Assembly: GCA_028820655.1 (NCBI GenBank)
Contig: JAPPIK010000021.1
Location: 30,113-94,112 of the forward strand
Direction of reading: 5' to 3'
Length of the DNA: 64,000 bases
Source: Candidatus Poribacteria bacterium
Lineage (GTDB): Bacteria > Poribacteria > WGA-4E > JAJDTR01
Positions within the stretch are counted from its first letter, which is position 1, and each line of letters starts with the position of its first letter. The position numbers and the translations under genes are program-made. Below are positions 1 to 55,141 of this stretch, piece by piece. Under the pieces are notes generated by a model. It was not told where the DNA came from, made no database searches, and saw only the letters and a program-made list of their open reading frames with translations.

Positions 1-1186
1 GCTGCGAAAAAGGGATGGAGGCACAATCAATGTGAGCTTGAATGCCACAACCGTCCGCGATGAAAATGGGAACCCAACCGAGGCACGATTTGATTGGCGT
101 GACACCACCCGTCATGCGGGGGAAATTGACGGCTTGCGCGCCGAGAATCGCCAACTGAAGCAGCGTCTGAGTTCTAACAGACCCCAAAACCCCGAAGTGT
201 TTTCCGAAATTATCACTCAAGATCCCGAAATGTATTCGATTTTTAGTCAAGTCGAGTCCATGGCGGGGAGCAGCAATCCTATGTTGATTACCGGAGAGAC
301 GGGGGTAGGCAAGGAGAAGATTGCGGCGATCGTCCACAAACTGAGCGGAAGACGCGGCGAATTTGTCCCGGTCAATATCGCCGGAGTTGATGACATGCTG
401 TTTTCGGACACCCTTTTCGGTCACGAAAAGGGGGCACACACTGGCGCCGATTCGGCGCGCCACGGGTTGGTTGAACAAGCGTCGGGCGGCACGCTATTCC
501 TTGATGAGATTGGCGACCTCGGTACCGAATCACAAACGAAACTCCTTCGCTTTTTGCAGGAGGGAGAATACCGTCATCTAGGTGAGGACACACCCATTAT
601 AGGCGACGTAAGGATCGTAACGGCAAGCAACCGGACGATTGAATCCCTCAGGGAAAGCGGGAACTTTCGCAGCGACCTCTTCTATCGCCTCGAAATCCAT
701 CATATTCACCTGCCATCGCTGCGTGAGCGGGTGGGGGATGTTCCTTTGCTCCTATCCCATTTTCTCAAGCGAACTGCTGCGGAGCTTAACAAAAAAACGC
801 CTACGCCTCCACCGGAACTTTTTACGTTGCTTGCGACCTACCACTTCCCGGGAAACATCAGGGAGCTTGAAGGGATGGTGATCGATGCCGTTAGCGGGCA
901 CAAAGGGGGTGTCCTCTCTACCGAACCTTTCCGCCTGAAAATTGACGAGCACACTTCCGTTTCTCCCGGAGACGGGGCGCCTGAAGTGGGCGGGATTTCG
1001 TTCTCGGATACCCTGTCACTGTTGCGGGAACTCCCGGCGCTGAAGGAAGTTCAAGACCGCGTGATTGCCGAAGCCCTCGAGCGCGCCGATGGCAATCAGA
1101 CGATTGCGGCTCGACTCTTGGGCATGTCAAAACAGGCGTTAAACAATCGTTTAAACCGCGCGCGAAATTCAAATAAAGTAGGGTGA
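1..1186 (+). CDS. sigma-54-dependent transcriptional activator (bacterial enhancer-binding protein), 5' end cut by the window edge
   Basis: Frame 2 is open from nt 2, so the start is probably upstream. The AAA+ sigma-54 interaction domain is present (GETGVGKE Walker [19 protein letters not shown] Walker B). A C-terminal Fis-type HTH is present ([22 protein letters not shown]). Confidence 0.85.
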
Positions 1187-1495: not shown

Positions 1496-1511
1496 TGGCA
1501 TGGGCTTTGCT
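1496..1511 (+). promoter_or_regulatory. putative sigma-54 (-24/-12) promoter TGGCAT-N5-TTGCT
   Basis: GG at 1497-98 and GC at 1509-10 are separated by exactly 10 nt. The match to the TGGCAC-N5-TTGCW consensus is good. It lies 310 nt downstream of the activator gene and upstream of co-directional genes. Confidence 0.45.
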
Positions 1512-1765: not shown

Positions 1766-1839
1766 TAACATTGAAAGGAGAATTACCGATGACACCTCGT
1801 AGTTTCACACAATAATACGGCTGCATCGCTGTTCTACTC

Positions 1840-2277
1840 GTGTTGGCGTTGGTCAGCGCCATTCCACTTATTTACGCCCACTCCGTTCAGGTCCCCTGGA
1901 GCGACATACACGACACCTCCGGTTGGGCTTGGGTTGGCGCTGTGGATTACCAAGTTCAAAACGGAAACTTTAACACTAGGTCGGAACACCAGTGCGGCAT
2001 TCTGAACGAGACCGGTGGGGATATCGGTATTCGCGTCGGATATGACCACAAAATTCTTCGAAATGGGCAGGTCGTGGAAAATGACGACTACTCACAAGCC
2101 CTTACAGTGGAAAATAATGAGTATTTTACGACTAGCGACGTACCCGGTCATTACGTAAGAAGTGCGTCTACACCCGTAGGTCCCGGCAATTACACGTTTG
2201 ATGCTTACACCTTGATAGCCTACAGAGGGAACGCACAAGCAAAAGCGACGCATCCTACCGTCGATTTGGAGGATTAA
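1840..2277 (+). CDS. hypothetical protein, possibly exported
   Basis: 145 aa ORF with a GTG start and a weakly hydrophobic N-terminus. No start-codon context or homolog recognised. Confidence 0.3.
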   Translation: MLALVSAIPLIYAHSVQVPWSDIHDTSGWAWVGAVDYQVQNGNFNTRSEHQCGILNETGGDIGIRVGYDHKILRNGQVVENDDYSQALTVENNEYFTTSDVPGHYVRSASTPVGPGNYTFDAYTLIAYRGNAQAKATHPTVDLED

Positions 2278-2353: not shown

Positions 2354-3271
2354 ATGACATACTACAAAACGCTTTGGATAATCGTGATCGTTGCCCTTTT
2401 AGTAGCCGCCCCAACCGCCTCGGCTCAGCCTGACGAAGTCCCTCCCGATGTGTTTGAAGCCGCGGTCGACGGATACCTCTACGCCGATTACCCCGGCGTG
2501 TTCGATGACGCCGAAGGAGATGAAGCCTTTGGCGAAGGCATCACAATAGAAATGTGGATCTATTTCACCGAGGTTCCGCCGGAACGGCAGTCACTCCATT
2601 GGGAACACTGGGCTATCGTCGCCAAGCCGGGCAGTTATTTTATTTCGGCGGCTGGAAGAGCTCTTGAAGATTCCGTCGATTCCAGTCTGCCAGAGGGGCA
2701 TACCAGGCTCATCTTTGCAGTGGAGTCAATTTCCGATGACCATGGCTGTTGCAATCGCGGCGTAGGCGGGATGCCGTTAGAGCCCGGAGAATTCCCCTTA
2801 AAGCGCTGGCTTCATATTGCCATGCAGATCGTGGTGAAAAAAGACGGGACACACCGTACAGAATTTATCGACCGCCACGGTGAAGTAAGAAGGCGATTCT
2901 CGGGGCAGATGGGACGCACGGAGGCGCCGCTATATGTTGGAGGCGCGCCAATGGTAACATTCGAGAACGGCGATACATGGAACAATGACTGGGGCAAACC
3001 GGTGTTCGAATCCATGAAAGGCTACATCGACGAGATTCGTATTTCCAAAGGGTGGCGGTATGTCGCCAAGGGGAATATCCACCCCAAGCGCAACTTCCGC
3101 GTTGATAAACGCACCATAGCGCTCTGGCGCTTTGAGGAAGGTCCCGGCGCACCCTTCTATCGCGATTCTTCGGGCAACGATTATACACTTTTTCCCGGCG
3201 GCTCCCTCGACGTTCAACCACTCAGCAAGATGAACATCACTTGGGGAAGCCTTAAACAGGGTAGGTTTTAG
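2354..3271 (+). CDS. secreted LamG/concanavalin-A-like jelly-roll protein with a shared C-terminal TWGxLK tail (paralog 1)
   Basis: N-terminal signal peptide (LWIIVIVALLVAAPTASAQP). LamG-type signature ALWRFEEGPGAPFYRDSSGNDYTLFPGG. About 80% identical to the adjacent paralog. Ends ...PLSKMNITWGSLKQGRF. Confidence 0.85.
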   Translation: MTYYKTLWIIVIVALLVAAPTASAQPDEVPPDVFEAAVDGYLYADYPGVFDDAEGDEAFGEGITIEMWIYFTEVPPERQSLHWEHWAIVAKPGSYFISAAGRALEDSVDSSLPEGHTRLIFAVESISDDHGCCNRGVGGMPLEPGEFPLKRWLHIAMQIVVKKDGTHRTEFIDRHGEVRRRFSGQMGRTEAPLYVGGAPMVTFENGDTWNNDWGKPVFESMKGYIDEIRISKGWRYVAKGNIHPKRNFRVDKRTIALWRFEEGPGAPFYRDSSGNDYTLFPGGSLDVQPLSKMNITWGSLKQGRF

Positions 3272-3330
3272 CGATGTCAAGATGAAAGGAATAAATCGTG
3301 TCCGCCCCCGCTGTTGCGTGCAGAGGAGGA

Positions 3331-3358
3331 GGGAGGCTTTAGTCTGAGGTTGCCTCCC
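3331..3358 (+). promoter_or_regulatory. conserved 5'-leader stem-loop upstream of LamG paralog 2
   Basis: Stem GGGAGGC/GCCTCCC around the loop tttagtctgaggtt (the loop shares TTTGAGGTTGCC with paralog 1), followed by a CU-rich tract and ATG. Confidence 0.35.
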
Positions 3359-3392
3359 CCTTTCTCCCCAAACCTACTCTCAAGGTAACGCC

Positions 3393-4301
3393 ATGACATA
3401 CTACAAGACGCTACTGTTAATCTTACTCGCTGTCCTTTTTGTTGCTGCAAACACCTTCGCCGAACCTGAAGAAGTCCCTCCCGATGTATTCGAAGCCGCT
3501 GCCGATGGCTACCTCTACGCCGATTACCCCGGCGTGTTCGATGACGCCGAAGGCGATGAAGCCTTCGGCGAAGGCGTCACAATCGAAATGTGGGTCTATT
3601 TCACCGAGATTCCGCCCGACCGGCAGTGGCTCCGCCCGTACAACTGGGTAATCGTCGCAAAGCCCGCCAGCTATTTTATTTCGGCGGCTGGAAGAGCTCT
3701 CGAGGACGGCTTTGATGCCAATATGCCGGAGGGGTTTACCAGGGTCACATTCGCAGTGGAGGAGAACACCGAAGGCTGTTGTGGTCGCGGCGAAGGCGGG
3801 ATGAATTATGATCCCGGCGAGTTCCCCTTAAACCGATGGCTTCATATTGCCTTCCAGCTCGTCGTGAAAAAAAGCGGCACACACGACACGACATTTATAG
3901 ACCGCTTCGGCGAGGGAAGCGGGCGTTTTAGCGCACCGATGGGGCGCACCGAGGCGCCGCTATACGTCGGTGGCGCGCCAAAGGTAACATTCGAAAACGG
4001 CGATAAATGGAACGACGACTGGGGGCGCTCGGAGTTCGTATCCATGAAAGGCTACATTGATGAGATTCGCATTTCGAAGGGATGGCGGTATGTCGCCAAG
4101 GGGAATATCCACCCCAAACGCAACTTTCGCGTCGATAAACGCACCATCGCGCTCTGGCGCTTTGAGGAAGGTCCCGGCGCACCCTTCTACCGCGATTCTT
4201 CGGGCAACGACTATACACTCTTCCCCGGTGGCTCCCTCGACGTTCAACCGCTCAGCAAGATGAACATCACCTGGGGAAGTCTAAAACAGGGTGGGTTTTA
4301 G
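3393..4301 (+). CDS. secreted LamG/concanavalin-A-like jelly-roll protein with a shared C-terminal TWGxLK tail (paralog 2)
   Basis: Tandem duplicate of 2354..3271, with a unit length of about 1039 bp. It has a signal peptide and ends ...PLSKMNITWGSLKQGGF. Confidence 0.85.
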   Translation: MTYYKTLLLILLAVLFVAANTFAEPEEVPPDVFEAAADGYLYADYPGVFDDAEGDEAFGEGVTIEMWVYFTEIPPDRQWLRPYNWVIVAKPASYFISAAGRALEDGFDANMPEGFTRVTFAVEENTEGCCGRGEGGMNYDPGEFPLNRWLHIAFQLVVKKSGTHDTTFIDRFGEGSGRFSAPMGRTEAPLYVGGAPKVTFENGDKWNDDWGRSEFVSMKGYIDEIRISKGWRYVAKGNIHPKRNFRVDKRTIALWRFEEGPGAPFYRDSSGNDYTLFPGGSLDVQPLSKMNITWGSLKQGGF

Positions 4302-4303: not shown

Positions 4304-4687
4304 ATGCCAAAATGGAAACTATATCTCGTCGAAGCCGCTCCCATCGCCATCGGCGTCGTTTTCCTCCTCGCGATAACTGCCGCTCCCAACATTTCCCTTC
4401 CTGATCGGAAAGACACATTGGAAGCCATCGTCAAAGTACATTTTTGGAGAGAAATCGCCTTTCAGCGGAATATCCCCAAACTGCTCCAACAGCTTTCACA
4501 CGCCAACCTGAAGAAATCAACACAAACAAGCTTTAATCCCGTCCGGTCCCCAGTTTCCACCGATGTATCACGAGCGCATATCATGACAGTCATCAACATT
4601 GACATCAAAAACTCCGATGAAAACCCCATTGAAAAAACCGATTGGCAGACGCAATCGACGCTTTGCGAGAAAACGGCGCACGGTTGA
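4304..4687 (+). CDS. hypothetical protein with an N-terminal membrane anchor
   Basis: 127 aa. The ATG is 2 nt after the LamG2 stop. One N-terminal hydrophobic helix (APIAIGVVFLLAITAAP). Confidence 0.4.
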   Translation: MPKWKLYLVEAAPIAIGVVFLLAITAAPNISLPDRKDTLEAIVKVHFWREIAFQRNIPKLLQQLSHANLKKSTQTSFNPVRSPVSTDVSRAHIMTVINIDIKNSDENPIEKTDWQTQSTLCEKTAHG

Positions 4688-4721: not shown

Positions 4722-5216
4722 ATGCTCAACATACCGTCTAGCCGCACTGTCGTCGCCATCATGGGCTTAATCGCAATCCTATACGCTTACGCGCAAAGCG
4801 CCGGGGAGTTACAACCGCTGTTTCTCATTCCTGCCACATTCCTTGCCGGTGCCGCGGCTTGTTACCTTTGGAAAACCGTTGTCCACACTTCACTGGTTTC
4901 CTACGCCGCTCATGCCGGCGCCCTCGGGTTCCTTTGGGCGCTTTATCTGATTTACCGCGAAGATTTTTTAGAAAGGCTGCCGCCCTTCAGCGCGAAAGTG
5001 GCTCCCATTACCCTCTTCTTCTTTCTGGCGTTTAGCGTATTGGTCCTAATTCGCCGTCTATGCCGGCAGGTACGCCCCATGCGTAAGTGGGCGGCCGTGC
5101 TGTTAGCGCTCTACCCCGTTTCTCTGGATTATCGTTACCCTAGCAGTAGAAGATACATCAGACCAAGAATTGCACGGTTTCCACTTCGGGGCGGTCATAG
5201 AAAAAATCAATGTTAA
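4722..5216 (+). CDS. hypothetical small 4-TM integral membrane protein
   Basis: 164 aa with four hydrophobic helices. No recognisable catalytic motif. Confidence 0.4.
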   Translation: MLNIPSSRTVVAIMGLIAILYAYAQSAGELQPLFLIPATFLAGAAACYLWKTVVHTSLVSYAAHAGALGFLWALYLIYREDFLERLPPFSAKVAPITLFFFLAFSVLVLIRRLCRQVRPMRKWAAVLLALYPVSLDYRYPSSRRYIRPRIARFPLRGGHRKNQC

Positions 5217-5667
5217 GGGGATTTCATTGCCTTACCAAATCTACCGCTACCATGCGTCAAAGCGCACCGTTGCGTTGCCAGAGTTGGAACTAAAAAGCAT
5301 CTGCCTCAGTGTAAATGACACTCAATCTTCCGAGATTGAACGAACGGATTTGGTGGAGATTCCTATGCCCGTGTCGGCAGTTCTAGAGGTTATTGATAAG
5401 AAAGGCAGAACACAACATGTCGTACCGCCCACCGTACGATTCGATGGAATACCGCTTGAACCGGAAAAATCGAACCACCGATCAACCGAGCAAATTGAGA
5501 ATTCCATAGGAGATGCGATGGAATCTGATAGAAAACTTGCAGACGGACAACTCATCATAATTTCCAACGACGGCCAGCCCTACGATTGGGACGTGTTCTA
5601 TCTCCTGCCCTCCGCGTCTCATACCCTAGACAATCGCCGTGTAGATAACGAGGGATCAACCAACTGA
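5170..5667 (+). CDS. hypothetical protein
   Basis: 165 aa ORF overlapping the previous ORF by 47 nt. No domain recognised. Confidence 0.25.
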   Translation: MHGFHFGAVIEKINVKGISLPYQIYRYHASKRTVALPELELKSICLSVNDTQSSEIERTDLVEIPMPVSAVLEVIDKKGRTQHVVPPTVRFDGIPLEPEKSNHRSTEQIENSIGDAMESDRKLADGQLIIISNDGQPYDWDVFYLLPSASHTLDNRRVDNEGSTN

Positions 5668-6363
5668 ATAGCGGGGACGATAGAAATCCTGCGGCGACCA
5701 GCAAGTAAATGCCCAAGAATCGCTTTGTCATGACCTTAAACATAGGCCAAGCTATAACAAGATCCCGTCTTTATTGATTTGTCACGACCTACCGCTTCAA
5801 TCCGTGCTCAACGCAACCCACCGCCTTGCCGGCATTCCACTGCACAATTAACCCCTTCAGAAAATCCTCACCCCGCAGCATTCCTAAAATACTCCGGCTC
5901 GATTTGGTGCATCTGTAGGGTGGAATCAGGCGAATAGATAGTGAGTGCGATAGAGATCCCCTTCCCATCAGTGGCTGATCCCCGCAAATAGGCAGGGATC
6001 AAGCGAGCGAACAGACCTAGCGCAGAATGGGGAGTAGGAAGTTCAATCGCGCACTTTATCCAGTCGGTTGATCGATAGAGAATCTGATTTGCGACCACCA
6101 TAAATAATCCCACGCGACAGAGTTTCCATAGCAATCCCACAATCAATGGCGCTAAATTGCGCCCAGCGGTTTTAGGTTGTTACTCTTAAAAATGGTTCAT
6201 AAAGCAGCACGGTTCAAAATCACTCGACCACTATTCCAGCAGCTCAATTCAAAAGGAACTAGCCGCGTTGTCCCTGTTGGAACGTGTAAGCCACTTGCGA
6301 ATCCACCCGCAAATGTGATAGAATATCAATTCAAAAACTCAGAAAAATCCAATTCGTTGAGAG

Positions 6364-7386
6364 GTGTATACTTACGTGAGGGAACATCATCGTATTGCAA
6401 TTGTCGGCGCAACGGGCGCTGTCGGCAATACACTCATGTCCATTTTGGAGGAGAGAGCGTTTCCATACGCTGCTCTCAAGTTGCTGGCTTCGCACAGATC
6501 CGCAGGCGAGATTCTCGCATTCAAAGACCAGCCGATCATGGTTGAAGAATTGACCCATGATTCGTTTGATGATGTCGATCTCGTGTTTTCGTCCGCCGGC
6601 TCAGCCATCAGCAAGGAGTTTATTCCAACCGCAGTCGACAAGGGGTGTCTCGTAATCGACAACACCAGCGCGTTTCGCATGGACGCGGATACACCTCTGG
6701 TAGTTCCGGAAGTTAACATGGGCGCGGCGATCAAACACAATGGCTTGATTGCCAATCCGAACTGTTCAACCATTCAGATGGTGGTCGCTCTCAAACCCAT
6801 CTACGACCGTGTCGGGATAAAGCGAATTGTCGTCTCGACGTATCAGAGTGTGTCGGGCAAAAGCGGTTCGGCGGTGATTGAGTTGGTAGAGCAGACAACG
6901 GCGGCGCTGGAAGGACGCCCGATCGAGCCGGATAAGTTTCCGCATCAGATGGCGTTTAACGTGGCATTCGACTGGCCGTTTACCGACAGCGGAGACAGTG
7001 AAGAGGAAATGAAGATGGTCAACGAGACGCGGAAGATTCTGGAAGATGACACGATTGCCGTGTCCGCGACGACGGTTCGCGTGCCGGTTTTCTTCGCTCA
7101 TTCCGAATCCATCAATGTGGAAACCGAGGACAAGCTTTCCCCGGAAGATGCGCGTCAACTACTGTCGGAATCTCCCGGCGTAGTGGTAACGGACGATCCG
7201 GCGAAGGGATCGTACCCGCTCGCGGTTGACGTTGCGGGAAAAGATGAAGTGTATGTCGGACGCATTCGAGAGGATCGCTCGATCGAAAATGGACTCAATC
7301 TCTGGGTCGTCGCCGACAATCTCCGAAAGGGCGCCGCCCTCAATGCTATCCAGATTGCCGAAACGCTTGATCGCATAAGTGTGTAA
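6364..7386 (+). CDS. asd: aspartate-semialdehyde dehydrogenase
   Basis: N-terminal NAD(P)-binding motif IAIVGATGAVG. Active-site region NPNCSTIQMV. Typical Asd length (340 aa). Confidence 0.9.
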   Translation: MYTYVREHHRIAIVGATGAVGNTLMSILEERAFPYAALKLLASHRSAGEILAFKDQPIMVEELTHDSFDDVDLVFSSAGSAISKEFIPTAVDKGCLVIDNTSAFRMDADTPLVVPEVNMGAAIKHNGLIANPNCSTIQMVVALKPIYDRVGIKRIVVSTYQSVSGKSGSAVIELVEQTTAALEGRPIEPDKFPHQMAFNVAFDWPFTDSGDSEEEMKMVNETRKILEDDTIAVSATTVRVPVFFAHSESINVETEDKLSPEDARQLLSESPGVVVTDDPAKGSYPLAVDVAGKDEVYVGRIREDRSIENGLNLWVVADNLRKGAALNAIQIAETLDRISV

Positions 7387-7635
7387 GAAGGCTTCGACAA
7401 TTTGATTCCTTGAAGTTGATGTCTCCCCGATTTCTCCACCGTTTACGCTTTAGAGGGCCCACACAATCCCTGTTAGCGGCGTAACAGAAGGAAACCGAAT
7501 GCGGCGGAACATTGACTGAGTAGAGGGAATGTTGGCGATTTGGGCGTCACGCTCGTAGAGTAATTCATTGAGCGCAGTTGATGTGGTTCGTAATATTCGG
7601 AACGAGTTTGGTGAATATGCAAGGAAAGGTACATA

Positions 7636-8502
7636 ATGGCACAACGGGACTACTATGAGGTGCTCGGCGTGAGTCGGGACGCATCTCCCGACGAAATAAA
7701 AAAAGCGTATCGCAAACTTGCCGTCAAATATCATCCTGACAAGAATCCGGGAAACGCCTCGGCGGAAGAAAAATTCAAAGAAGCCTCCAACGCTTACGAA
7801 GTGCTGTCTGATCCGAAGAAGCGCCAGATCTACAATCAGCGTGGACACGCGGGCGTTAACGATATGGGATTTCACGGATTTACGAACACAGAGGACATTT
7901 TCTCGAATTTTGGCGATATTTTCGGGCGCACGGTCTTCGGAAATTTTGGCGACGTCTTTGGGGATGTGTTCAACCGCCGAGGGCCCGGCACGCCTCAAGC
8001 ACAAGCGGTGGATACGCGCACCAAATTGACGATTTCGTTCATGGAGTCCGTGTATGGAACCGAAAAACGGGTGAACGTCGAGGGCAGAGATATCACAATC
8101 AAAATACCGGCGGGCATAAAAGACGGGCAGACTCTCCGGCTCCAGGGGCAGGGCGGGCGAGCATTTAGCGGCCGACAAACGGGTTCACTGTTGGTCACAA
8201 TCTCTGTTGAACCTCACCCGGATTTTCAACGCGAAGGGTTGGACCTCATCACGCAGGTTTCCATTCCTTTTACGCTCGCGGCGCTTGGCGGGAAGGTACC
8301 CGTACCGACCTTAACCGGAAAAATCAACTTAACAATACCCCAAGGAAGCCAACCGGGATCGCAATTGCGTCTGCGGGGCCAAGGCATAGTTGATTCCGCG
8401 GGGAGGAAGGGCGATTTGCGGGTATTGGTTCAGATAGAGATTCCGAAAGCGTTAACTCGGAAACAGAAAGAACTGCTCAACGAGTTCGACGAGACGCTGT
8501 AA
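7636..8502 (+). CDS. DnaJ-class J-domain chaperone without a zinc finger (CbpA-like)
   Basis: J domain (DYYEVLGV...KYHPDKNP) and a Gly/Phe-rich region (NFGDIFG). The CxxCxGxG zinc-finger repeats are absent. Two C-terminal beta domains. Confidence 0.8.
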
Positions 8503-8544
8503 CCCAAGCATCATCGCCCTACCAACCAGGAGGAATACATCTGC

Positions 8545-9732
8545 ATGCTTTCACTCTCGCAGCGGAGCGAGAACGTTGCTCCCTCGGAAACGTTAGCGAT
8601 TACCGCGAAGATAAACTCAATGCAGGCACAAGGCATTGATGTCATCAAATTTGCCGCAGGCGAGCCTGATTTCGACACACCCGAATACATTAAAGATGCC
8701 GCAATCGAATCGTTGCGAAACGGTTTTACCAAATATACTCCGGTTCCCGGCATCGCGGCGTTGAGAGAAGCGATTGTCGAGAAATTCAAGAGAGACAACA
8801 ATTTACACTATTCCCCGTCTCAGATTATTGTGTCGTGCGGCGCCAAGCACTCCATTTACAATATCTTACAGGCAATCTGTAATCCGGGAGACGAGGTTGT
8901 ATTTGCCGCACCCTATTGGGTCAGCTACCCGGAGATAGTGAAGCTATCGGATGCCAAACCGATCGTCGTGGAGACAACCGCCGGCCAGAACTTTTGCATG
9001 AAGCCGGAACAGATCGAAAGCGTATTATCGGATAGAACAAAGGCGATTATCATCAGCAGCCCAAGCAATCCGACCGGAACCGTCTATGACGCCGCAACCC
9101 TCTCGCAAATCGGGGAACTTGCACTTGAGCGCCAATGCTACGTCATTTCCGATGAAATCTACGAATCGCTCCTCTATGACGATTTAAGGCATCAAAGTAT
9201 TGCATCGCTCGATGAAGCCGTTCAGGGAATCACCTTCGTTGTCAACGGCGTGTCGAAAGCCTATTCCATGACCGGTTGGCGTATCGGATACACGGCAGGA
9301 CCGGAAAAAGCGGTTCAAGCCATGTCGCGAATTCAATCGCACAGCACTTCCAACCCAACATCGATCGCGCAGATTGGCGCACTGACCGCGCTGACCGCCT
9401 CCCAGGAAGCGGTCGAGGAAATGCGAAGGGCGTTTGAGGAGCGGCGAAATGTAATATGCCAGCGATTTGACGAAATTGATGGCATTACATACGCCAAACC
9501 CCAAGGCGCGTTTTACATTTTTCCGGATGTTTCCTCGCACTATGGACGCAACATCAACGGGAAAACCGTGAACGGGTCTGTGGAGATGACGGCTTTCTTG
9601 CTAGACAGCGCAAGGGTCGGCGTGATTCCGGGAAATGCGTCGGGCGCCGACAACCATCTGCGGCTGTCTTTTGCGACTTCGCTGGCAGAGATAAACAGCG
9701 GTATGGATAGGATTAAGGAAGCGCTTGCCTAA
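8545..9732 (+). CDS. class I/II pyridoxal-phosphate aminotransferase (aspartate aminotransferase-like)
   Basis: PLP-lysine region SKAYSMTGWRIGY. Overall AspAT-family layout (395 aa). Confidence 0.85.
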   Translation: MLSLSQRSENVAPSETLAITAKINSMQAQGIDVIKFAAGEPDFDTPEYIKDAAIESLRNGFTKYTPVPGIAALREAIVEKFKRDNNLHYSPSQIIVSCGAKHSIYNILQAICNPGDEVVFAAPYWVSYPEIVKLSDAKPIVVETTAGQNFCMKPEQIESVLSDRTKAIIISSPSNPTGTVYDAATLSQIGELALERQCYVISDEIYESLLYDDLRHQSIASLDEAVQGITFVVNGVSKAYSMTGWRIGYTAGPEKAVQAMSRIQSHSTSNPTSIAQIGALTALTASQEAVEEMRRAFEERRNVICQRFDEIDGITYAKPQGAFYIFPDVSSHYGRNINGKTVNGSVEMTAFLLDSARVGVIPGNASGADNHLRLSFATSLAEINSGMDRIKEALA

Positions 9733-9796
9733 TGGCGCATGCAGTGACCGAGAACACCGCGCCTTCGTCCTGTGCAACAACCAAGGAATCGCACAT

Positions 9797-10312
9797 ATGA
9801 CAGATTTTCTAAGTTATATTCGAGATGTGCCTGATTTTCCCAAACCGGGAATCGCATTTAAGGATATTACGCCGCTTCTTCAAAGTAAATCGGCATTTCG
9901 CGACGCCATTGAGGTTTTGAGAGCGAACTATCAACCCAAGGAGGTTGATGTCGTTGTGGGGATTGACGCGAGAGGGTTCATACTTGGCGGCGCTCTGGCG
10001 CATCAGTTGGGGGTTGGTTTTGTTCCCGTCCGCAAGAGTGGAAAATTGCCGTACCACACCTACGAAGCCGAATACGACCTTGAATACGGCACCGATACGC
10101 TTGCCATTCATCAAGACGCATTTGTTCCGGGGAGTCGTGTGTTGATCTGCGACGACGTGATTGCGACCGGCGGCACCATCGCCGCCACTATCGAACTCGT
10201 CGAAAAACTCCAAGCGGAAGTCATCGGGATAGGGGTGCTTATAGAGTTGACCTTTCTCAACGGGCGTGAAAAATTCGAGGGACACGACATCTTTTCTCTG
10301 ATTGAATTTTAG
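9797..10312 (+). CDS. apt: adenine phosphoribosyltransferase
   Basis: PRPP-binding motif VLICDDVIATGGT. APRT N-terminal region DFPKPGIAFKDITPLL. About 171 aa from ATG 9797; the listed ORF has an upstream extension overlapping the aminotransferase gene. Confidence 0.9.
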   Translation: MTDFLSYIRDVPDFPKPGIAFKDITPLLQSKSAFRDAIEVLRANYQPKEVDVVVGIDARGFILGGALAHQLGVGFVPVRKSGKLPYHTYEAEYDLEYGTDTLAIHQDAFVPGSRVLICDDVIATGGTIAATIELVEKLQAEVIGIGVLIELTFLNGREKFEGHDIFSLIEF

Positions 10313-10461
10313 CGGTCGGTGTGCTATACTAATCTAGATTGCGTCTCGGCTCGGAGAATAAAAGCAGTATATTTTTTGAAGTGGGAATTGCCGGGTTATG
10401 AACATAGCTTTTCAATGAAGATTCAGAAGGCTCGGTCATACGAAGGTAGAATCATCCAAAC

Positions 10462-10493
10462 CCCTCATCCGATGTTTTAGATGAGGGATTTTC
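10462..10493 (+). terminator. candidate intrinsic terminator downstream of apt
   Basis: 8 bp stem CCCTCATC/GATGAGGG around a 10 nt loop, followed by ATTTTCAC. Confidence 0.35.
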
Positions 10494-10545
10494 ACGTTCA
10501 GAATCGGTTTGGCGCTACTCGGCGCTAACGTTGACAAGACACGAT

Positions 10546-10618
10546 GCGCCTGTAGCTCAGGGGATAGAGCAGGGGCTTCCTAAGCCTCGTGCCGGGGGTT
10601 CGAATCCTCCCAGGCGCA
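10546..10618 (+). tRNA. tRNA-Arg (anticodon CCU)
   Basis: Cloverleaf identifiable: acceptor GCGCCTG/CAGGCGC, D-arm GCTC-AGGGGATA-GAGC, anticodon loop TTCCTAA, T-arm GGGGG-TTCGAAT-CCTCC. No encoded CCA. Confidence 0.85.
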
Positions 10619-10639
10619 TCATCCATTTTCTAGGAGAAA

Positions 10640-12607
10640 TTGATGTACCAATTCAGTGCATGGAAACTTACATTAATCATTGTCGTACTCGTTTTTGCGG
10701 CGCTGTACCTGATTCCCACCCCCGATTACTTTTTCAATCCGCTCTATGGGAATCTCCCGCCCTGGATGCAGGAAAGATTGTCCAAGTTTGAAGCGACTGA
10801 AGATAACAGCTTGAAGGTCAGCTTGAATGACGTGCAATTTCCGGAAGGGATCAACTTACATGATGCCAAGACGGATTTGAAAGACATTTTCCGTGTACAT
10901 CTGGGTAAACTTGGGTTTGTAGAGGAAACGAATTACGAGTTCGCCGGACCGGAGTCCTCCGATTTTATCGTTAAGTTCCTTCAAGAGAAAAGCACCGCCG
11001 ATCTCCAATCGGTTCTCGAAGATTTGCATCTTTACGGTAGCCTGCCGACGTTTGTGCGCAGGTTGGTTCCTAGCAACCGACTAAAGCTGGGACTAGATCT
11101 CAAAGGGGGAGTTCGCCTTGTGCTCGAGGTTGATCCGGAGCAATCCACGGCGGAGTTGCTAAAAGAACGCGCATCATCCATCCCGGAACGGCTAAGGGCT
11201 GATGACATTCTGTGTAAGAAAGTGGACGTTGTGGCCGACCAGGAATCGCTAAATGTATTCATTGTTGTTAAGAAGAAACACCGGGCCGATGTGGAACAGA
11301 AAGCCGAATACTTGAATAAAGCTCGAAAACTGCTCGATGAAATGGAATATTTTGACGACGCGACGGAGCTTTCTGCAACCGATACCCAGATCGTGTACGA
11401 AATGCGACTCAGCAAGGATGGAATTGAGAAATACAGCGAGGGTGCAATCGAGCAAGTCTTGGTCGTCCTAAGGAACCGTGTCGACGCATTCGGTGTCGCT
11501 GAACCTTCTATCAGGCGGGAAGCCAACAGACCGCGAATTATTGTTGAACTACCCGGTGCAAAGGACTCGTCCAAACCTCTTCAGATTGTCAAGACGATGG
11601 GTAGACTGGAGTTCAAACTTGTGGAGAAGAACCCGAATGGCGGCATCTACTGGTCGGGTTCCGCGGATACCCAACCCCCCGAAGATATCCCTGAGGGAAC
11701 AGAGATAAGTCTTCATCACGATGATGGAACTTCCCAAGCGAATAGTTGGTACGTGTTGAAGAGCCCTGTTCTACTCACAGGTGATCGGATAACTGGGGCG
11801 GGGCCAACTCAAGGGGCGACGGGTTTCGAAATTGCGGTGTCCATGAGCTTCGATTCGGCGGGACGACGTAAATTTGCCGAAGTCACGAGCAACCATGTCA
11901 ATGAAGCCTTGGCGATTCTGCTAGACGGGAGAGTGCAATCGGCGCCAAGGATCGAGGAACCAATCGTCGGCGGACAGGCGCGCATCACGGGGGACTTCAC
12001 ATTTGAGGAGGCAAACTATTTGTCGAATATTCTTAAATCCGGTGCTTTTCCGGTTGGCGTGAGGATTGCCGAGGAACGCACGGTAGGTCCGACGCTTGGA
12101 CAGGAATCAATCGACAACGGCATCAAGGCGGCACTCATCGGCATGGGATGTGTCATCATATTCATGCTAGTTTACTACAAGCTTTCAGGGATAGTCGCCA
12201 TCATTGCCTTGGTATTCAACATGTCGATCCTTCTCGGGGCGCTAGCGGGTTTTGGCGCGGCGTTGACTTTGCCGGGTATCGCAGGGCTCGTTTTGACTAT
12301 CGGAATGTCTGTTGATGCCAATGTTCTTATCTTTGAACGCATCCGTGAAGAGTTGCGTACGGGCAAGAATGTATGGTCGTCAATTGTAAGCGGTTACCAG
12401 AGGGCATTCTTGACAATCGTTGACGCGAATCTTACGACATTTTTCACGGCGCTGGTACTGTACCAGTTTGGGACGGGGCCTATAAAGGGATTCGCGATTA
12501 CGCTCGGAATTGGCATATTGGCAAGTATGTTCACGTCGATTGTTGTTACTCGCGAAATCTACGGATGGGTCATCGGCAAACGCAGCATAGAGAAACTCAG
12601 CATTTAG
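10640..12607 (+). CDS. secD: protein translocase subunit SecD
   Basis: N-terminal TM helix, large periplasmic domain containing LGLDLKGGV, and C-terminal multi-TM bundle. It is immediately followed by secF. Confidence 0.9.
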   Translation: MMYQFSAWKLTLIIVVLVFAALYLIPTPDYFFNPLYGNLPPWMQERLSKFEATEDNSLKVSLNDVQFPEGINLHDAKTDLKDIFRVHLGKLGFVEETNYEFAGPESSDFIVKFLQEKSTADLQSVLEDLHLYGSLPTFVRRLVPSNRLKLGLDLKGGVRLVLEVDPEQSTAELLKERASSIPERLRADDILCKKVDVVADQESLNVFIVVKKKHRADVEQKAEYLNKARKLLDEMEYFDDATELSATDTQIVYEMRLSKDGIEKYSEGAIEQVLVVLRNRVDAFGVAEPSIRREANRPRIIVELPGAKDSSKPLQIVKTMGRLEFKLVEKNPNGGIYWSGSADTQPPEDIPEGTEISLHHDDGTSQANSWYVLKSPVLLTGDRITGAGPTQGATGFEIAVSMSFDSAGRRKFAEVTSNHVNEALAILLDGRVQSAPRIEEPIVGGQARITGDFTFEEANYLSNILKSGAFPVGVRIAEERTVGPTLGQESIDNGIKAALIGMGCVIIFMLVYYKLSGIVAIIALVFNMSILLGALAGFGAALTLPGIAGLVLTIGMSVDANVLIFERIREELRTGKNVWSSIVSGYQRAFLTIVDANLTTFFTALVLYQFGTGPIKGFAITLGIGILASMFTSIVVTREIYGWVIGKRSIEKLSI

Positions 12608-14767: not shown

Positions 14768-16237
14768 TTGTGGGACGCTAGTTATTCGGGCGATGAACAT
14801 TATGAACTCGAGCTGCTTGGGTTTGAATCAAAACATGGAGTGAGGACCAAATTGAATCCCCGAATTCTCATAGTGGACGACGATTCATCCGGTCTTGAAG
14901 CCACGGCTGAAGTGTTGAAGCGTGAAGGGTACGACCTCTTCACCGCGACCGGCGCGCGCGCCGCGATTCAGATTCTGGACGCGGAAAACGTCGATGTTGT
15001 GATTACCGACGAAAAGATGCCAGACATGAGTGGTATCGAGTTGTTGAAGTATATTCTCGCCAATCATCCTTATACACAGGTTATTCTCCTTACCGCTTAT
15101 GGCAGCATAGATAGCGCTGTCGAAGCCATCCAGACCGGCGCGGTCTCATACCGAGAGAAGCCAATCAGAATCGAATTACTTCGCCAAACGGTTAAGAGCG
15201 CACTGGAGAGGCGTACGCTTCATCTCCAAAACGTAAATCTACGCCAGCAACTTGATGGGAAGTTCGGTTTCGCGAACATTACCGGTACATCGAAGCCGAT
15301 GCAGGATCTTTTTGGGATGGTTCGGCGCATTGCCCCGACAAATGTAACCGTCTTGATCACGGGAGAAAACGGTGTTGGAAAGGAACTCATTGCCAAAGCC
15401 GTTCACAATCATAGTCGGCGCAAAGACAGATTGTTCAGAGACCTTAACTGCGGGGCGATTCCTCGGGAATTGGTGGAAGGCGAACTCTTTGGTCATGAAA
15501 AGGGAGCCTTTACAAGTGCGACCGCCCGCAGATTTGGCGTATTTGAACAAGCGGATGGTGGAACTCTGTTCCTTGACGAGATTGGGGAAATGACGCCCGA
15601 AACGCAGGTGAGGTTTCTCCGCGTGTTAGAGACCCAGGAATTTAGGCGGCTGGGCGGCGACAAGAACATCCGAGTTGATGTCCGCGTTATCGCTGCGTCG
15701 AATATGGATTTAAATGCCGCAGTCAGAAACGGTTCGTTTCGGGAAGATCTTTACCATCGAATTAACCGGTTCGCGCTGCACGTGCCCCCTCTCCGAGAGC
15801 GGCGAGAGGATATCCCGCTGCTTGCCAGTCAATTCCTACGAGAATTTAGCAAGGAACACGATCTGCCGGTGACGGACATCTCCCCCGATGCTATGAATCG
15901 TCTCAAATATGCGGATTGGCCCGGCAATGTACGTCAACTGCGGAATGCCATTGAAACCGGAGTGATCCTGTCGACAACCGGGGCAGTTCAGCTCTGGGAC
16001 CTTCCGCCGGAAATCCAGGCGGGACCTCCCGCTCTTCCTCCGGCGTCCAACGATTCTGAGGAAATTGTTGGGAGAGTGGGAATGACGATGGACGAGATTG
16101 AAAAGGAAGCCATTCGCAAAACCCTAGCGGACACGGGAGGGAATAAGACCCAAGCTGCAAAGATTCTCAAGATGGGGTTACGCACACTTCATCGTAAAGT
16201 GCAATCTTACGGTCTGGAAAATGAGGAGACTTGGTGA
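14768..16237 (+). CDS. sigma-54-dependent two-component response regulator (NtrC family)
   Basis: REC domain (ILIVDDD...D), AAA+ sigma-54 domain ([20 protein letters not shown]) and a C-terminal Fis HTH. The true start is probably GTG 14840 or TTG 14852, the latter with a GAGG-N7 RBS. Confidence 0.85.
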   Translation: MWDASYSGDEHYELELLGFESKHGVRTKLNPRILIVDDDSSGLEATAEVLKREGYDLFTATGARAAIQILDAENVDVVITDEKMPDMSGIELLKYILANHPYTQVILLTAYGSIDSAVEAIQTGAVSYREKPIRIELLRQTVKSALERRTLHLQNVNLRQQLDGKFGFANITGTSKPMQDLFGMVRRIAPTNVTVLITGENGVGKELIAKAVHNHSRRKDRLFRDLNCGAIPRELVEGELFGHEKGAFTSATARRFGVFEQADGGTLFLDEIGEMTPETQVRFLRVLETQEFRRLGGDKNIRVDVRVIAASNMDLNAAVRNGSFREDLYHRINRFALHVPPLRERREDIPLLASQFLREFSKEHDLPVTDISPDAMNRLKYADWPGNVRQLRNAIETGVILSTTGAVQLWDLPPEIQAGPPALPPASNDSEEIVGRVGMTMDEIEKEAIRKTLADTGGNKTQAAKILKMGLRTLHRKVQSYGLENEETW

Positions 16238-17209: not shown

Positions 17210-19876
17210 TTACGAACGATCGATTACACTGTAGTATATTGCATTAAATAGGAGTTTGAACGTCCCGTGAGATTGCGCTCGATGCTGCGGTTTGAAACCA
17301 AAGAGTATCACGTTCCCTTTCCCGATTATGACATCCAATGCCGCTGCCTTTTGGCGGATGCGTTTTTCTCCCTCAATCCAACCGCTCATTAGCGGGTTAA
17401 AATTGGGATAAGACGCAATTACCCTCCCACCTCTTGCTTCAAAGGCAGGGCCTGACTTAAAGAACACTGCCGTTTCGCGATTTGACCCGTATCCGATTGG
17501 GTGTGTTGTCTCGACGAACACCCGCAACAGGGATCCCGGACAGAAAAACCCGCCTTTTGGAGATTCATGCGTGTTTGCTTGGTTTGATTGCTCCAGGACA
17601 TTTTGCACTTCCAATCCAAAGTATTCTATTGCTAGTTCGCACGCATCGTTCAGGCAAATGAGTGTTCCTCCGTTCTCGGCAAATGATCGTAGGTTGGCGG
17701 CACCCGAGTTTCCAATTCCCCCGGCATACTCCGGGGGGACAGATCCCGGGGAGTGTCCATGGATAATCTCAGCCACGGACATATCGGGCAGAATGATTAC
17801 ATCATATCGTTCCGCCAGTCCGCCGGCTCGTATCTCGGAATCCCTCAACGTGTTGTAAGGGAACTCGTGCTGTTCCAATACCCATCGCGTCCATCCTTCA
17901 TCAATGCTTGCCACCCATGGTTTGTACAACCCAATACGGGGAACCCTTAATGGAATCAAATCATCCTCGGCAGGAATCTCGTCAAGCGCATGAATTTCCA
18001 TTCCAAGCGATTCGGCAAACTCTTTTAGCTCTGACGACAAGTGGACAGGATTTCTCTTGGTTCTAATCAAGATTGAACCTCTCGGAAACACCTTGTCGCG
18101 ATGGGTAAATTCTCGCGTGCACCAAAAGAGTGTTTCGGTCCCCGCGTGCTCGCCACTGCGATTTGACCGGTTCATCAGTCGGTTCACCGCAACCGCTTCC
18201 CGGTTTGTCTGATTCTTTAAAAGAAAAGCTACCGGTTCCGGGATGCTATGCAAAATTCCCCGTTGCTTTGGAATTTCATCGAGTAGCATGGTGTGCACTT
18301 CAAATTGACTGACGACTTCAATGGCATTGACTCCCATCTGCAGAGGCAATGTCCATCCCGCTATGTCATAGGGGCGTTCAGGAGGTGCGTGGGCACTCGG
18401 TCGGCGTCGGGGATACCGTTGGATCTCAAGAAGATCCTTGGCGTGGGAGCGAAAGGGTTGCGCCATAGGGACAACAAACGTACCCGATGGATATTCGACG
18501 CCGTCAGCCGTAAATCGAGCGGTCGCGTGGTGTACCCGCACCCCGCCGTCGTGCAGGATTTCGAGCATTCTTCGCGCGGCGTAAGGATCTCGCTGTTTCT
18601 GAGGCACAAGGAAGGCGCGAGGAGGTTCACTATTGCCCATTTCCACGGCTTCTAGTCCCATTTTATAAAAGTTTGAGAGCAACAGGTCTCTATTTGTCGA
18701 GGCAAACTCAAGAATTGAGTAGACCGATGCCTTTTCATATTCTACGATATCGCGTAGGCGCCACCAACCTCCGGGCCACGGTTCGGGGAAGTTCGTCTGT
18801 TGCGCGTAATTGTCCAGACCTCGCCGATGGCCCTTCAGCCTTAGCCGTGGTTGAAATACCGGCGATGCGATGTTTGCGCTTGCGGCTTCCGTCAGTATGC
18901 CCACCATATTGTGGCGATACGGAACGGTTCGGAATCCGCCGTGCCACCACATATCGTAGACAGCGTTGGACAGTACTCCGGTGAATCCTTCGGAAGTGAG
19001 GTCAAAGGCGAGCTGTGCACCGATTAGGGAGAGTGTCCGTTGTAGAATCGCGGGTATGTTTGGATTGACGGGATCGAAATATGGCGGTATTACGAATCGT
19101 GCGCCCTTATTTTTCATCTGGTGAAGATCGAGGACCACCTGCGGGTACCAATCTTTGTAAAGAAGCTCAGTGACAATCCGCGTTTCCACTTGTGTCAGCA
19201 TAAACCAGTCGCGATTATTATCGTGCCCGGTGTATTTGTGGTATAGCCAAGGCATTGGTGAACTTTCGTAGGGTGTGCCGACCCATTCGTTGTACCAATC
19301 GATCACTTTATTCAGTCCATCGGGGTTCGTGGAAGGAATTAGCAGTATAATGACATTCTCCAGGATTTCTTTAATTCGTGAAGAGTTTTCGGACGCAAGT
19401 TCGTAAGCCAACTCAAGCGACATTTGTGAGGACGCAACCTCTGTCGAGTGCAGGTTGCAGTTGATCAACACGACGGTTTTACCGTGTCTAGCTAATGATT
19501 CTAATTCGGACCGGTCCAACCAATCCGGATTGGCGAGCTTGTATTGATAGTCTTTATGTTTTGCGAGCTGAGTCAAATTGTCCCGTGAGGATATAACGAC
19601 CAACGCAAAATCGAGCCCTTCCGTGGTGTGCCCGCGTATTTCCAAGTTTACCCGGTCGGAGTTTTCCGACAAGTGATGAAAATAATCCAATATCGTCTCC
19701 CATCTTGCGAGTTTGTAATCCGCACCAATGGGAAACCCGATTGAATCTTCGGGAGGGACAATCTGAGCGCGTACGATGACTGATGACAGCAAATAACCAA
19801 ATATAAATATAAACAGGTGAAAGTGTCGGGGTGTCAACTCTATCTCCCTCAATGCTGAGGTATACGGGCGGTGCAC
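17210..19876 (-). CDS. secreted M14-family zinc carboxypeptidase domain fused to a large C-terminal domain (class-I glutamine-amidotransferase-like)
   Basis: Signal peptide. M14 zinc ligands HSTE...NPDG...LDLHQ in the N-terminal ~350 aa. The C-terminal ~500 aa has a ThuA/DJ-1-like segment (VIILPDM...GGTLICLND). Confidence 0.7.
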   Translation of the reverse strand: MHRPYTSALREIELTPRHFHLFIFIFGYLLSSVIVRAQIVPPEDSIGFPIGADYKLARWETILDYFHHLSENSDRVNLEIRGHTTEGLDFALVVISSRDNLTQLAKHKDYQYKLANPDWLDRSELESLARHGKTVVLINCNLHSTEVASSQMSLELAYELASENSSRIKEILENVIILLIPSTNPDGLNKVIDWYNEWVGTPYESSPMPWLYHKYTGHDNNRDWFMLTQVETRIVTELLYKDWYPQVVLDLHQMKNKGARFVIPPYFDPVNPNIPAILQRTLSLIGAQLAFDLTSEGFTGVLSNAVYDMWWHGGFRTVPYRHNMVGILTEAASANIASPVFQPRLRLKGHRRGLDNYAQQTNFPEPWPGGWWRLRDIVEYEKASVYSILEFASTNRDLLLSNFYKMGLEAVEMGNSEPPRAFLVPQKQRDPYAARRMLEILHDGGVRVHHATARFTADGVEYPSGTFVVPMAQPFRSHAKDLLEIQRYPRRRPSAHAPPERPYDIAGWTLPLQMGVNAIEVVSQFEVHTMLLDEIPKQRGILHSIPEPVAFLLKNQTNREAVAVNRLMNRSNRSGEHAGTETLFWCTREFTHRDKVFPRGSILIRTKRNPVHLSSELKEFAESLGMEIHALDEIPAEDDLIPLRVPRIGLYKPWVASIDEGWTRWVLEQHEFPYNTLRDSEIRAGGLAERYDVIILPDMSVAEIIHGHSPGSVPPEYAGGIGNSGAANLRSFAENGGTLICLNDACELAIEYFGLEVQNVLEQSNQANTHESPKGGFFCPGSLLRVFVETTHPIGYGSNRETAVFFKSGPAFEARGGRVIASYPNFNPLMSGWIEGEKRIRQKAAALDVIIGKGNVILFGFKPQHRAQSHGTFKLLFNAIYYSVIDRS

Positions 19877-41751: not shown

Positions 41752-42382
41752 GAAGTGAATCAGACCAATCGTTGTTCTAGGGGCTGAAATGAGATTCCTT
41801 TGATATTGAGTCACAGTGGGCAAAAGCATAGCACGTTCGGATTGGGTAAGGCAATGCAAAAACCGGGCATAGTACCTAATTATATTCATTAGAATTGACC
41901 ATACTTTGGGATTGACATTGTAAGTTGAGACGCTATAATTGAGGGCGGTCCATCATCCTCAAACGAACGCCATCGATCACTTGATGGCATGGGATAAACA
42001 CTCGGAAAACTAGAGGGCTATAGGTCCGATCGCCAGCTACATCCGAGGTTATTGCTCATGTCCCTTCGATTGATGCGATTCGTTGGGAGGTCGAATGGAA
42101 AATTGCCGCGAAGCAGTGGCGAAAAACGACATCTTGTGCGCTGATTCGCGATTCTAACGGAGTTTAGATTACAATTAGAATAATCTGTTCCACTCGTGAC
42201 GGTTGATGCCGGTTAAAGACGAAGACTGTTGCGGAAATATGTCTTACGGGCGTTTTATGCTCCGGTTTCCATCCGTGACCGGAAACTCTCCCACCGAATC
42301 CCGCGAGGCTTTCCAGTAAAGCACATACCAAGTTTCATGTTTGCCGCATGAGCCTAAATTCCCATCTTCAAGGAGATAGTAC

Positions 42383-43387: not shown

Positions 43388-43722
43388 GTACCACGACAAT
43401 AAGCACTCGCATCTTCAGACGATGGGTTTAGCCAGCGGTAACCGCTCGAACAGATTACTGAACCGGAGACTCGAATCGCGAGCGTTTTTTGGTTCTCCTC
43501 CGCGCGGCGCAAGACCGGACAGTGTGCATCCTTGAAATTCCATCAGAGGTCGCGTAAAGTGATACTGTGTGTGATTTGATTGTTAAGCCCTTCGTTCTCG
43601 TGGTAAAATACAAGAGTTGGAGTGTGAGATGAAGGCTTCTTGACCATTAGAGCGTGAGGACGCCTTCGGTGTATGTTCCAAAAAGAGTTGTCATGAACAA
43701 TTTCGAAAAAGGAGACACAAAA

Positions 43723-51362: not shown

Positions 51363-51473
51363 AAGAAATAGACGTTATTTGGCAATTGGAGTCTTGTTTC
51401 CCGTGGGGGCGGGGAGTCGCGACCTGCAAATCGCTCCTACAGGTATAGAGCTCGAAAAAGGAGTAAATGACCT

Positions 51474-52472: not shown

Positions 52473-52628
52473 TGTCAATCGGGCTAGAGGACTGGGCGGG
52501 TCATTGAAAAAAATCTCCAGCGCCGATAGCGTTGCAAAATGGTTTGGAGCGCGTCCATACTGTACCTGCGCAGCCACTCAAAACAGGTTTCTTTACCGTT
52601 CTTTTTACGCACAACCAAGGAGAAAAAA

Positions 52629-55117: not shown

Positions 55118-55141
55118 CTATGGAGGCGTGACGAACGAGAA

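Follow-up and report, generated by a model that had tools for sequence, protein, structure and literature searches.

A conserved C-terminal peptide with traits of a sorting signal on LamG-like and other exported proteins of Poribacteria

Two adjacent genes near the start of a 64-kb stretch of a Candidatus Poribacteria genome (GenBank assembly GCA_028820655.1, contig JAPPIK010000021.1, positions 30,113 to 94,112; the whole stretch is called the window here) encode LamG-like paralogs, LamG1 and LamG2, that end in ...LDVQPLSKMNITWGSLKQG(R/G)F (Table 1). This ending belongs to a short conserved peptide, referred to below as the tag, which is the subject of this study. Both proteins start with a canonical Sec signal peptide, read from the sequence as MTYYKTLWIIVIVALLVAAPTASA|QPDE. 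A sequence-only reading of the window had described them as secreted LamG/ConA-like paralogs, and the structural data agree. The AlphaFold2 model of LamG1, built on a 91-sequence alignment, is a confident jelly roll (predicted local distance difference test score, pLDDT, 86; predicted template modelling score 0.83). Its best Foldseek matches in the PDB are neurexin LNS2, agrin G2 and pentraxins, with E values of 1e-5 to 1e-4 and a probability of 1.0. Laminin_G_3 (PF13385) scores 15.4 bits on LamG1, below the Pfam gathering threshold of 27.6, and the Pfam search gave no PF13385 match for LamG2; the family is precomputed on many of their homologs, including more distant ones (~50% identity). A database search with LamG returned 155 homologs, every named one of which comes from a Candidatus Poribacteria metagenome-assembled genome. 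Both genes thus encode Sec-exported, non-lipoprotein LamG-type binding modules. Judged solely by their fold family, the domains probably bind glycans or matrix.

The tag lies outside the fold. In the LamG1 model, residues 290-305 (LSKMNITWGSLKQGRF) have pLDDT values below 50 and no secondary structure. The tail is therefore an appended extension and not a strand of the jelly roll, in agreement with the sequence-only reading, which had asked whether it might be a buried strand. Despite the predicted disorder, V287, T296, W297, G298 and K301 are invariant or nearly so in 91 homologs, to the same degree as the core of the fold, and the motif is kept in 110 of the 120 LamG homologs listed. The two paralogs differ at a single position within their last 78 residues. 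Their nucleotide identity is 90-93% in the 3' third (3023..3271 vs 4053..4301) and 62-87% over most of the remainder; the 3' ends have therefore been homogenised, which suggests either gene conversion or a common constraint on the C-terminal strands and the tag. LamG1 has a further peculiarity in residues ~253-283 (3110..3205; TIALWRFEEGPGAPFYRDSSGNDYTLFPGG), which resemble the segment that normally opens Laminin_G_3 (xxALWxFDEGxGxxxxDSSGN). In LamG1 this segment sits C-terminally, and the model places it in strands of the sandwich. By eye, LamG1 may be a circularly permuted LamG.

The tag is not confined to the LamG pair. All six frames of the window were scanned with the expression W[GA]x[ILVM]K near the C-termini of open reading frames (ORFs). 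Exactly 11 ORFs carry the motif at the C-terminus, all on the forward strand: the LamG pair and nine ORFs at 43.6-57.2 kb. An alignment of the 11 tails gave the common element V-x-P-x-x-K-x4-W-G-x-[ILV]-K, followed by 2-7 residues. The proposal that the LamG pair has the same tail as the proteins at 43-57 kb thus holds for the motif, not for the peptides, which are not identical. Tail codons vary synonymously from gene to gene, which indicates selection on the protein rather than a DNA repeat. A DNA-level repeat or gene-conversion artefact as the source of the tag was rejected on the same ground, the homogenised LamG 3' ends notwithstanding. Three of the nine ORFs are tandem PD40 paralogs (54110..57181) of 335 amino acids each. 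They are separated by two identical spacers of 24 nt, and the ends differ solely in the stop and start contexts.

Beyond the window, we scanned genomes, one per species, for LamG relatives and collected 77 loci totalling 1.43 Mb. All but one of the loci (76 of 77) are labelled Poribacteria, pelagic PCPOR lineages among them, and the remaining one is labelled 'uncultured bacterium'. In these 1.43 Mb, the pattern occurs within the last 16 residues of 195 ORFs of at least 80 amino acids, compared with 4 ORFs in an equal-sized control window further upstream. The consensus of the tag is [LA]-[AS]-V-x-P-x-G-K-L-x-T-T-W-G-x-[ILV]-K, about 17 residues, with 1-10 polar or basic residues behind it. The logo of 206 proteins reads L-A-V(170)-x-P(118)-x-G(113)-K(172)-L(122)-[AT]-T(143)-T(149)-W-G(178)/A-x-[LVI]-K(203), where the numbers are counts of the residue. 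The preference for Lys over Arg is pronounced at both Lys positions, 172:3 at the first and 203:3 at the last. The extension past the last Lys is rich in Arg, Gln and Lys and is 1-10 residues long, never 0. The very last residue varies (R, Q, K, F, N, E and others), with Phe in 29 of the 206. The motif is not followed by a hydrophobic segment: hydrophobic runs in the last 30 residues reach 8 residues at most, and the longest is usually 3-4.

A search that started from the window alone gave a similar picture. When 1.84 billion representative proteins were searched with a 32-column profile of its 11 tails, 124 matched at E<=1e-3. The motif is at most 10 residues away from the C-terminus in 107 of these, and the named cluster members carry only Poribacteria or 'TolB' labels. 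The sequence-only reading had called the tag family dispersed rather than a single locus, and the data go beyond this claim: the tag is spread across Poribacteria on at least 16 unrelated families. Tag carriers number ~70 per Mb in the outermost 5 kb of the locus flanks, a biased upper estimate because tag genes cluster. The locus labelled 'uncultured bacterium' (L036, a 6-kb contig) encodes a tagged LamG protein of 30% identity at 256..1147, with a sigma-54-like site 40 nt upstream, and the tag may reach beyond the named Poribacteria. We found no description of the motif in Pfam, NCBIfam, the PDB or the literature searched. The tail profile matched nothing among PDB sequences at E<=10, and literature searches for the motif strings and for NYPNPFNP returned no paper.

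The carriers are diverse and mostly exported. We clustered by sequence the 2371 ORFs from the 77 loci and the window, and tag carriers fall into at least 16 clusters. Pfam assigns several of these to LamG_3, Kelch, PD40, BNR-like, GH43_C2 (ConA-like), 3keto-disac_hyd (3-keto-disaccharide hydrolase), Ldl_recept_b/YWTD and LRR+fn3+LTD proteins, and several carrier clusters have no Pfam assignment. By a simple hydrophobicity rule, signal-peptide-like N-termini are present in 168 of 190 tag proteins (~88%) and in 194 of 604 other clustered ORFs (p=7e-45). A lipobox-like site was found in only five tag proteins. The tag is therefore a modular, strongly selected and position-specific linear motif that is used throughout Poribacteria on unrelated exported proteins. 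Very large multi-domain 'eukaryote-like' proteins are also among the carriers, as indicated by a 1173-residue protein in locus L050 (11464..14985, reverse strand) that combines leucine-rich repeats (LRR), fn3 and a lamin-tail domain (LTD) and ends in an Ig-like segment and then the tag (...GARGKFTTRWGELKAR). Tag genes form long tandem arrays elsewhere in Poribacteria: locus L001 has six LamG paralogs at 6100..11980, and loci L011 (5149..17780), L022 and L027 (the latter two on the reverse strand) each have 7-8 BNR-like propeller paralogs, at least one gene of each array having a sigma-54-like site within 130 nt upstream.

The motif also has a second position, which the sequence-only reading overlooked. 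Within the 2371 ORFs, it occurs internally only four times, in each case directly before a C-terminal domain (CTD; ...AVEPTGKQGTIWGKVKAAEVFQNYPNPFNPETWIPY...). The domain that follows matches FlgD_ig and Por_Secre_tail in Pfam, as well as TIGR04183 at 27.4 bits (cut-off 23), with the match starting two residues past the motif. These families are the CTDs of type IX secretion systems (T9SS). A search with motif plus CTD returned 1960 proteins, the named ones from Poribacteria. Among the top 120, 31 have the strict motif and ~15 more have variants with Leu or Phe in place of Trp; the remaining CTD proteins have a different junction, ...LEQLLAALTPKETALLPNYPNPF. In an AlphaFold2 model of a motif-plus-CTD protein, the CTD is well defined (pLDDT >90) and the motif disordered (pLDDT <50). 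The modelled CTD resembles FlgD, the PorZ and PorU CTDs, and the CTDs of substrates in complex with the SprA translocon. Therefore, in fixed register, the motif is a flexible junction before T9SS type-A CTDs in Poribacteria.

Three classes of protein were thus present in our sample: 206 with the tail only, four with motif and CTD, and 15 with a CTD and no motif. A member of the third class is encoded in the window itself (the GH67N-like protein in Table 1), so the same genome uses both kinds of C-terminal signal. We considered whether stop-codon artefacts hide a CTD behind the tails and rejected this: no frame within 330 nt downstream of the 206 tail genes holds CTD-like sequence, and the stop codon usage of these genes is unbiased. 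TIGR04183 domains on poribacterial eukaryote-like proteins were noted earlier, with the pathway left open (Kamke et al., 2014; PMC3909097). Our literature search on Poribacteria and T9SS or gliding found nothing relevant beyond that study.

Table 1. Positions of the genes and sequence elements discussed, within the 64-kb window
Feature	Position	Strand	Remarks
Sigma-54-dependent activator (bacterial enhancer-binding protein, bEBP), C-terminal part	32..1186	+	Cut by window edge; Pfam Sigma54_activat 1.3e-54, AAA_lid_14, HTH_8
Sigma-54 -24/-12 promoter-like element	1496..1511	+	TGGCATGGGCTTTGCT; 1 mismatch to TGGCAC-N5-TTGCW
First operon ORF, small exported protein	1789..2277	+	In-frame TAA 1813..1815; callable from GTG 1840
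LamG-like paralog 1 (LamG1)	2354..3271	+	305 amino acids; signal peptide, jelly roll, C-terminal tag
Tag of LamG1	3206..3268	+	L285-F305, LDVQPLSKMNITWGSLKQGRF; pLDDT <50 at 290-305
LamG-like paralog 2 (LamG2)	3393..4301	+	302 amino acids; 79% identical to LamG1
Tag of LamG2	4236..4298	+	LDVQPLSKMNITWGSLKQGGF, ends ...QGGF; found by motif scan and codon comparison
Small ORF, N-terminal membrane anchor	4304..4687	+	Begins 3 nt past LamG2 stop codon
Polytopic membrane protein, conserved operon partner	4722..5667	+	Frameshift-split: 4722..5216 and 5170..5667
SecD	10640..12607
Second sigma-54 activator (REC-AAA-HTH)	14768..16237
M14 carboxypeptidase-like protein	17210..19876	-	888 amino acids
M23 peptidase	26000..27220	-
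GH67N-like protein with T9SS-type (FlgD_ig) CTD	39271..41889	-	872 amino acids; Pfam FlgD_ig 7e-12, residues 791-855; junction without motif
Exported tag protein, no family assigned	43654..44505	+	Ends ...VDPKSKLAATWGQIKQQ
Exported tag protein, no family assigned	44891..45736	+	Ends ...AVSPEDKVTTSWGTIKASQH
Tag-bearing PD40 propeller gene	48548..49534	+	In-frame TGA at 48887..48889
Three tag-bearing PD40 (TolB-like) propeller genes	50403..51362, 51474..52472, 52539..53594	+	Within 50403..53594
Second sigma-54-like element	53881..53896	+	TGGCAATGACGTTGCT; 213 nt upstream of PD40 triplet 54110..57181
Three tandem tag-bearing PD40 paralogs	54110..55117, 55142..56149, 56174..57181	+	Within 54110..57181

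The LamG genes are part of an operon whose order (small exported ORF, LamG1, LamG2, small membrane-anchored ORF, polytopic membrane protein) recurs in related loci. A counterpart of the first ORF (cluster 48) is the first gene before LamG in loci L005, L013, L015 and L021; the ORF has no Pfam or NCBIfam match. The small ORF behind LamG2 (cluster 20) is a conserved operon partner found 3' of LamG in loci L003, L005, L006 and L007, with no Pfam match. The polytopic membrane protein (cluster 13), intact in the same four loci at 259-315 amino acids, has no Pfam or PDB match. Both membrane proteins are limited to the LamG subfamily described here, and neither matches anything known. Three genes of the window are disrupted: the first operon ORF by a TAA inside its signal peptide, the polytopic membrane protein by a frameshift (5110..5220), and a PD40 gene by a TGA (Table 1). 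For the first two, other loci have intact orthologs. The disrupted genes are either pseudogenes or metagenome assembly errors.

The sequence-only reading had placed the LamG genes under a putative sigma-54 promoter next to an activator gene. The promoter element (TGGCATGGGCTTTGCT) and its neighbour stand; the position of the LamG genes needs refinement. The element lies 858 nt upstream of LamG1 and directly precedes the first operon ORF (1789/1840..2277), which makes LamG1 and LamG2 genes two and three of the operon. The complete activator, seen on the source contig (L078, 286..1833), has 515 residues with an N-terminal PAS domain, and its ortholog adjoining LamG in locus L003 has PAS, AAA and HTH domains. 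About 19 of 78 loci, among them those of LamG relatives at ~27% identity, have the element TGGCA[CT]GGAC[TC]TTGCT upstream of their LamG operons, and a similar element, TGGCACACAACTTGCT, precedes arrays of the BNR-like tag family. Taking all clustered ORFs of at least 200 amino acids, a sigma-54 site lies within 400 nt upstream of 18 of 188 tag genes and of 7 of 586 others (odds ratio 8.8, p=4e-7). This conservation and enrichment support the reading that the LamG operon is under predicted sigma-54/bEBP control.

How might the tag work? With moderate confidence, we favour a role as a Poribacteria envelope sorting or attachment tag. After Sec export, a dedicated cell-envelope factor would read the tag, and this reading would decide the final location of the protein, by keeping it at, or attaching it to, the envelope or cell surface. 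As the sub-mechanism, we prefer that the protein is processed or transpeptidated on the C-terminal side of the invariant Lys, immediately after it. Tail-only proteins would lose the short basic peptide as leaving group and motif-plus-CTD proteins the entire CTD, so that both classes would mature to an identical ...T-T-W-G-x-I-K end. Three points favour Lys-adjacent processing: Arg does not substitute for the Lys, the Lys is never the final residue, and either removal gives the same end. If basic extensions are trimmed, the M14 carboxypeptidase-like protein of the window is a speculative candidate for the trimmer; its gene is unlinked to the tag genes.

Several observations weigh against such a role. 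Nothing protease-, sortase- or receptor-like recurs beside the tag genes in the 77 loci. The recurrent untagged neighbours there and in the window are metabolic or unrelated (GFO/IDH/MocA, amidohydrolase, ABC-2, Lnt, TPR, NHL, DUF5916). CTDs without the motif outnumber those with it, 15 to 4, and the motif is therefore not required for a CTD, which weakens the idea of a common cleavage site. Within subfamilies, the extensions past the Lys show partial conservation (K-x-x-x-F, KK-x-x-S-N-V-R). This would be superfluous in a pure leaving group and counts against processing. Removal of the T9SS CTD in Porphyromonas was described as independent of sequence (PMC4804311). No Por/T9SS structural genes were found in poribacterial single-cell genomes (Kamke et al., 2014; PMC3909097), and none of the T9SS core machinery (SprA/Sov, PorV, PorU, GldKLMN) was seen in the window. 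In addition, our locus sample is biased towards LamG neighbourhoods. A bolder version of the proposal is put forward only tentatively, as possible but short of probable: the tag may mark an unrecognised Poribacteria-specific envelope pathway, in which a dedicated enzyme would carry out Lys-directed cleavage or transpeptidation, which would have evolved from or would replace the T9SS CTD system, and which would display 'eukaryote-like' domains to the sponge.

The main rival explanation is that the tag is never cleaved and serves as a non-covalent docking peptide, a reversible tether to an envelope receptor similar to TonB-box or TolA-box peptides. The receptor could be an outer-membrane protein, a CTD-like Ig domain or a shuttle protein, contacted via beta-strand augmentation or recognition in a pocket. 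A motif that is disordered and yet strongly conserved is typical of folding induced by binding, and the V-x-P-x-G-K stretch followed by L-x-T-T-W may reflect the periodicity of a hairpin. The subfamily-specific conservation past the Lys, awkward for processing, fits an intact C-terminus, and the occurrence of the motif with or without a CTD indicates an independent module. However, docking does not readily account for the near-absolute choice of Lys over Arg at two positions and for the lack of any protein that ends at the Lys, for which chemistry at this residue is a simpler explanation. No receptor candidate was found in the neighbour clusters of the 77 loci, and no PDB sequence resembles the motif. 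We regard docking as a serious alternative that is on balance rather unlikely.

A C-terminal degron or quality-control signal for a periplasmic PDZ protease (Tsp/Prc/CtpA or DegS-like), or an outer-membrane-protein-like beta-signal for the beta-barrel assembly machinery (BAM), is very unlikely. The terminal Phe of the LamG pair and of the other proteins counted above recalls the C-termini of outer-membrane proteins, and M14 carboxypeptidase-like and M23 peptidase genes are present in the window, at a distance of 13-22 kb that does not amount to linkage. Signals for PDZ domains and BAM are defined by the very last residues, whereas those of the tag proteins are variable and conservation is found 2-11 residues before the end; moreover, the cargo proteins are soluble jelly rolls and propellers rather than beta-barrels.

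It is highly improbable that the tail is an evolutionary stump, a functionless remnant of lost T9SS-type CTDs, even though motif and CTD are in fixed register and 26 of the 29 proteins with a terminal Phe have a 4-5-residue extension that mimics the K-x-x-E-V-F of the first CTD strand. The W, G and K are invariant across families, down to ~27% identity in the LamG domain, and the tail codons turn over synonymously. Tail-only proteins outnumber motif-plus-CTD proteins by 206 to 4 in the sample, and no CTD remnant lies downstream of the stop codon of any tail gene. Such a history may describe the origin of the tag rather than its present state.

Poribacteria encode microcompartments, the tail is short, disordered and C-terminal with a G-x-L-K core, and its W-G-S-L-K may be loosely like the G-S-L-K/R motifs of encapsulins, but a cargo-loading peptide for an encapsulin or bacterial microcompartment is extremely improbable: 88% of the carriers have Sec-type signal peptides and they are of extracytoplasmic types (TolB-like PD40, LamG, LRR/fn3), they are too many and too diverse per genome, the motif also precedes T9SS-type CTDs, and no shell gene lies near tag genes in the window or related loci. 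Targeting to such compartments and the beta-signal were both rejected on the grounds of signal peptides, cargo folds and variable last residues.

Poribacteria are uncultured and belong to the most abundant symbionts of sponges. The foremost candidates for interaction with the host are their expanded 'eukaryote-like' proteins (LamG, PD40/WD40, Kelch, LRR, fn3 and LDL-receptor repeats), and the tag may bear on how these get to the cell surface or remain there. It offers a simple sequence rule for listing the exported, sorted proteome of Poribacteria, a handle for a search for the machinery by phylogenetic profiling, and a concrete peptide for biochemistry. The sigma-54 promoters linked to tag genes suggest a regulated programme for deploying these surface modules. 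In its properties the tag resembles a C-terminal sorting signal; that it marks a separate pathway is a real prospect. If it is processed at the conserved Lys, it would represent a new prokaryotic C-terminal sorting architecture that has neither a membrane helix nor a folded domain.

Comparison with known systems puts these properties into context. The fold of the LamG pair is that of Laminin_G_3 and ConA-like lectins, as the AlphaFold2 and Foldseek results indicate (neurexin LNS, agrin G, pentraxins); the window proteins differ in falling under the Pfam threshold and in the apparently C-terminal location of the domain-opening segment. The tag does not have the features of the beta-signal of outer-membrane proteins, since a minority of the tag proteins end in Phe (29 of 206) and the cargo is made of jelly rolls and propellers.

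The T9SS type-A CTD (TIGR04183/PF18962 Por_Secre_tail, PF13860 FlgD_ig) is similar in several respects. Both systems combine a Sec signal with a C-terminal signal on many unrelated proteins, the carriers are beta-rich and adhesin-like or enzyme-like, and in some proteins the Poribacteria motif is joined to CTDs exactly where Bacteroidota remove the CTD. The T9SS signal, however, is a beta-sandwich of 70-90 residues, and the tag is a disordered peptide of ~17. The Poribacteria junction is a strongly conserved motif, in contrast to the junction described as sequence-independent in Porphyromonas. LamG1 has only 21 residues beyond its fold, modelled as disordered, and the tail-only proteins (the LamG pair and a PD40 tag protein) gave no TIGR04183 or PF18962 match at E<=0.1. 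Tail-only proteins have no folded CTD, and the tag therefore lacks the defining feature of the T9SS type-A CTD.

Signals of the sortase and exosortase class (LPXTG, PEP-CTERM, GlyGly-CTERM, MYXO-CTERM) are likewise short motifs near the C-terminus of paralogous and unrelated exported proteins; they are lineage-specific, have basic residues past the motif and are expected to be served by many-to-one machinery. The tag differs from them in having no hydrophobic transmembrane segment and in an extension that may be a single residue, and no NCBIfam sorting-domain model matches it. Without a membrane helix, it therefore lacks the defining feature of this class as well.

Braun lipoprotein (Lpp) offers a further parallel. 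Its C-terminal Lys, which is the last residue, is attached to peptidoglycan by L,D-transpeptidases. The Lys of the tag is never last, and the tag cargo are not lipoproteins. What the two may have in common, by analogy, is a near-C-terminal Lys that is invariant and for which Arg is no substitute, together with a proposed outcome of tethering to the envelope.

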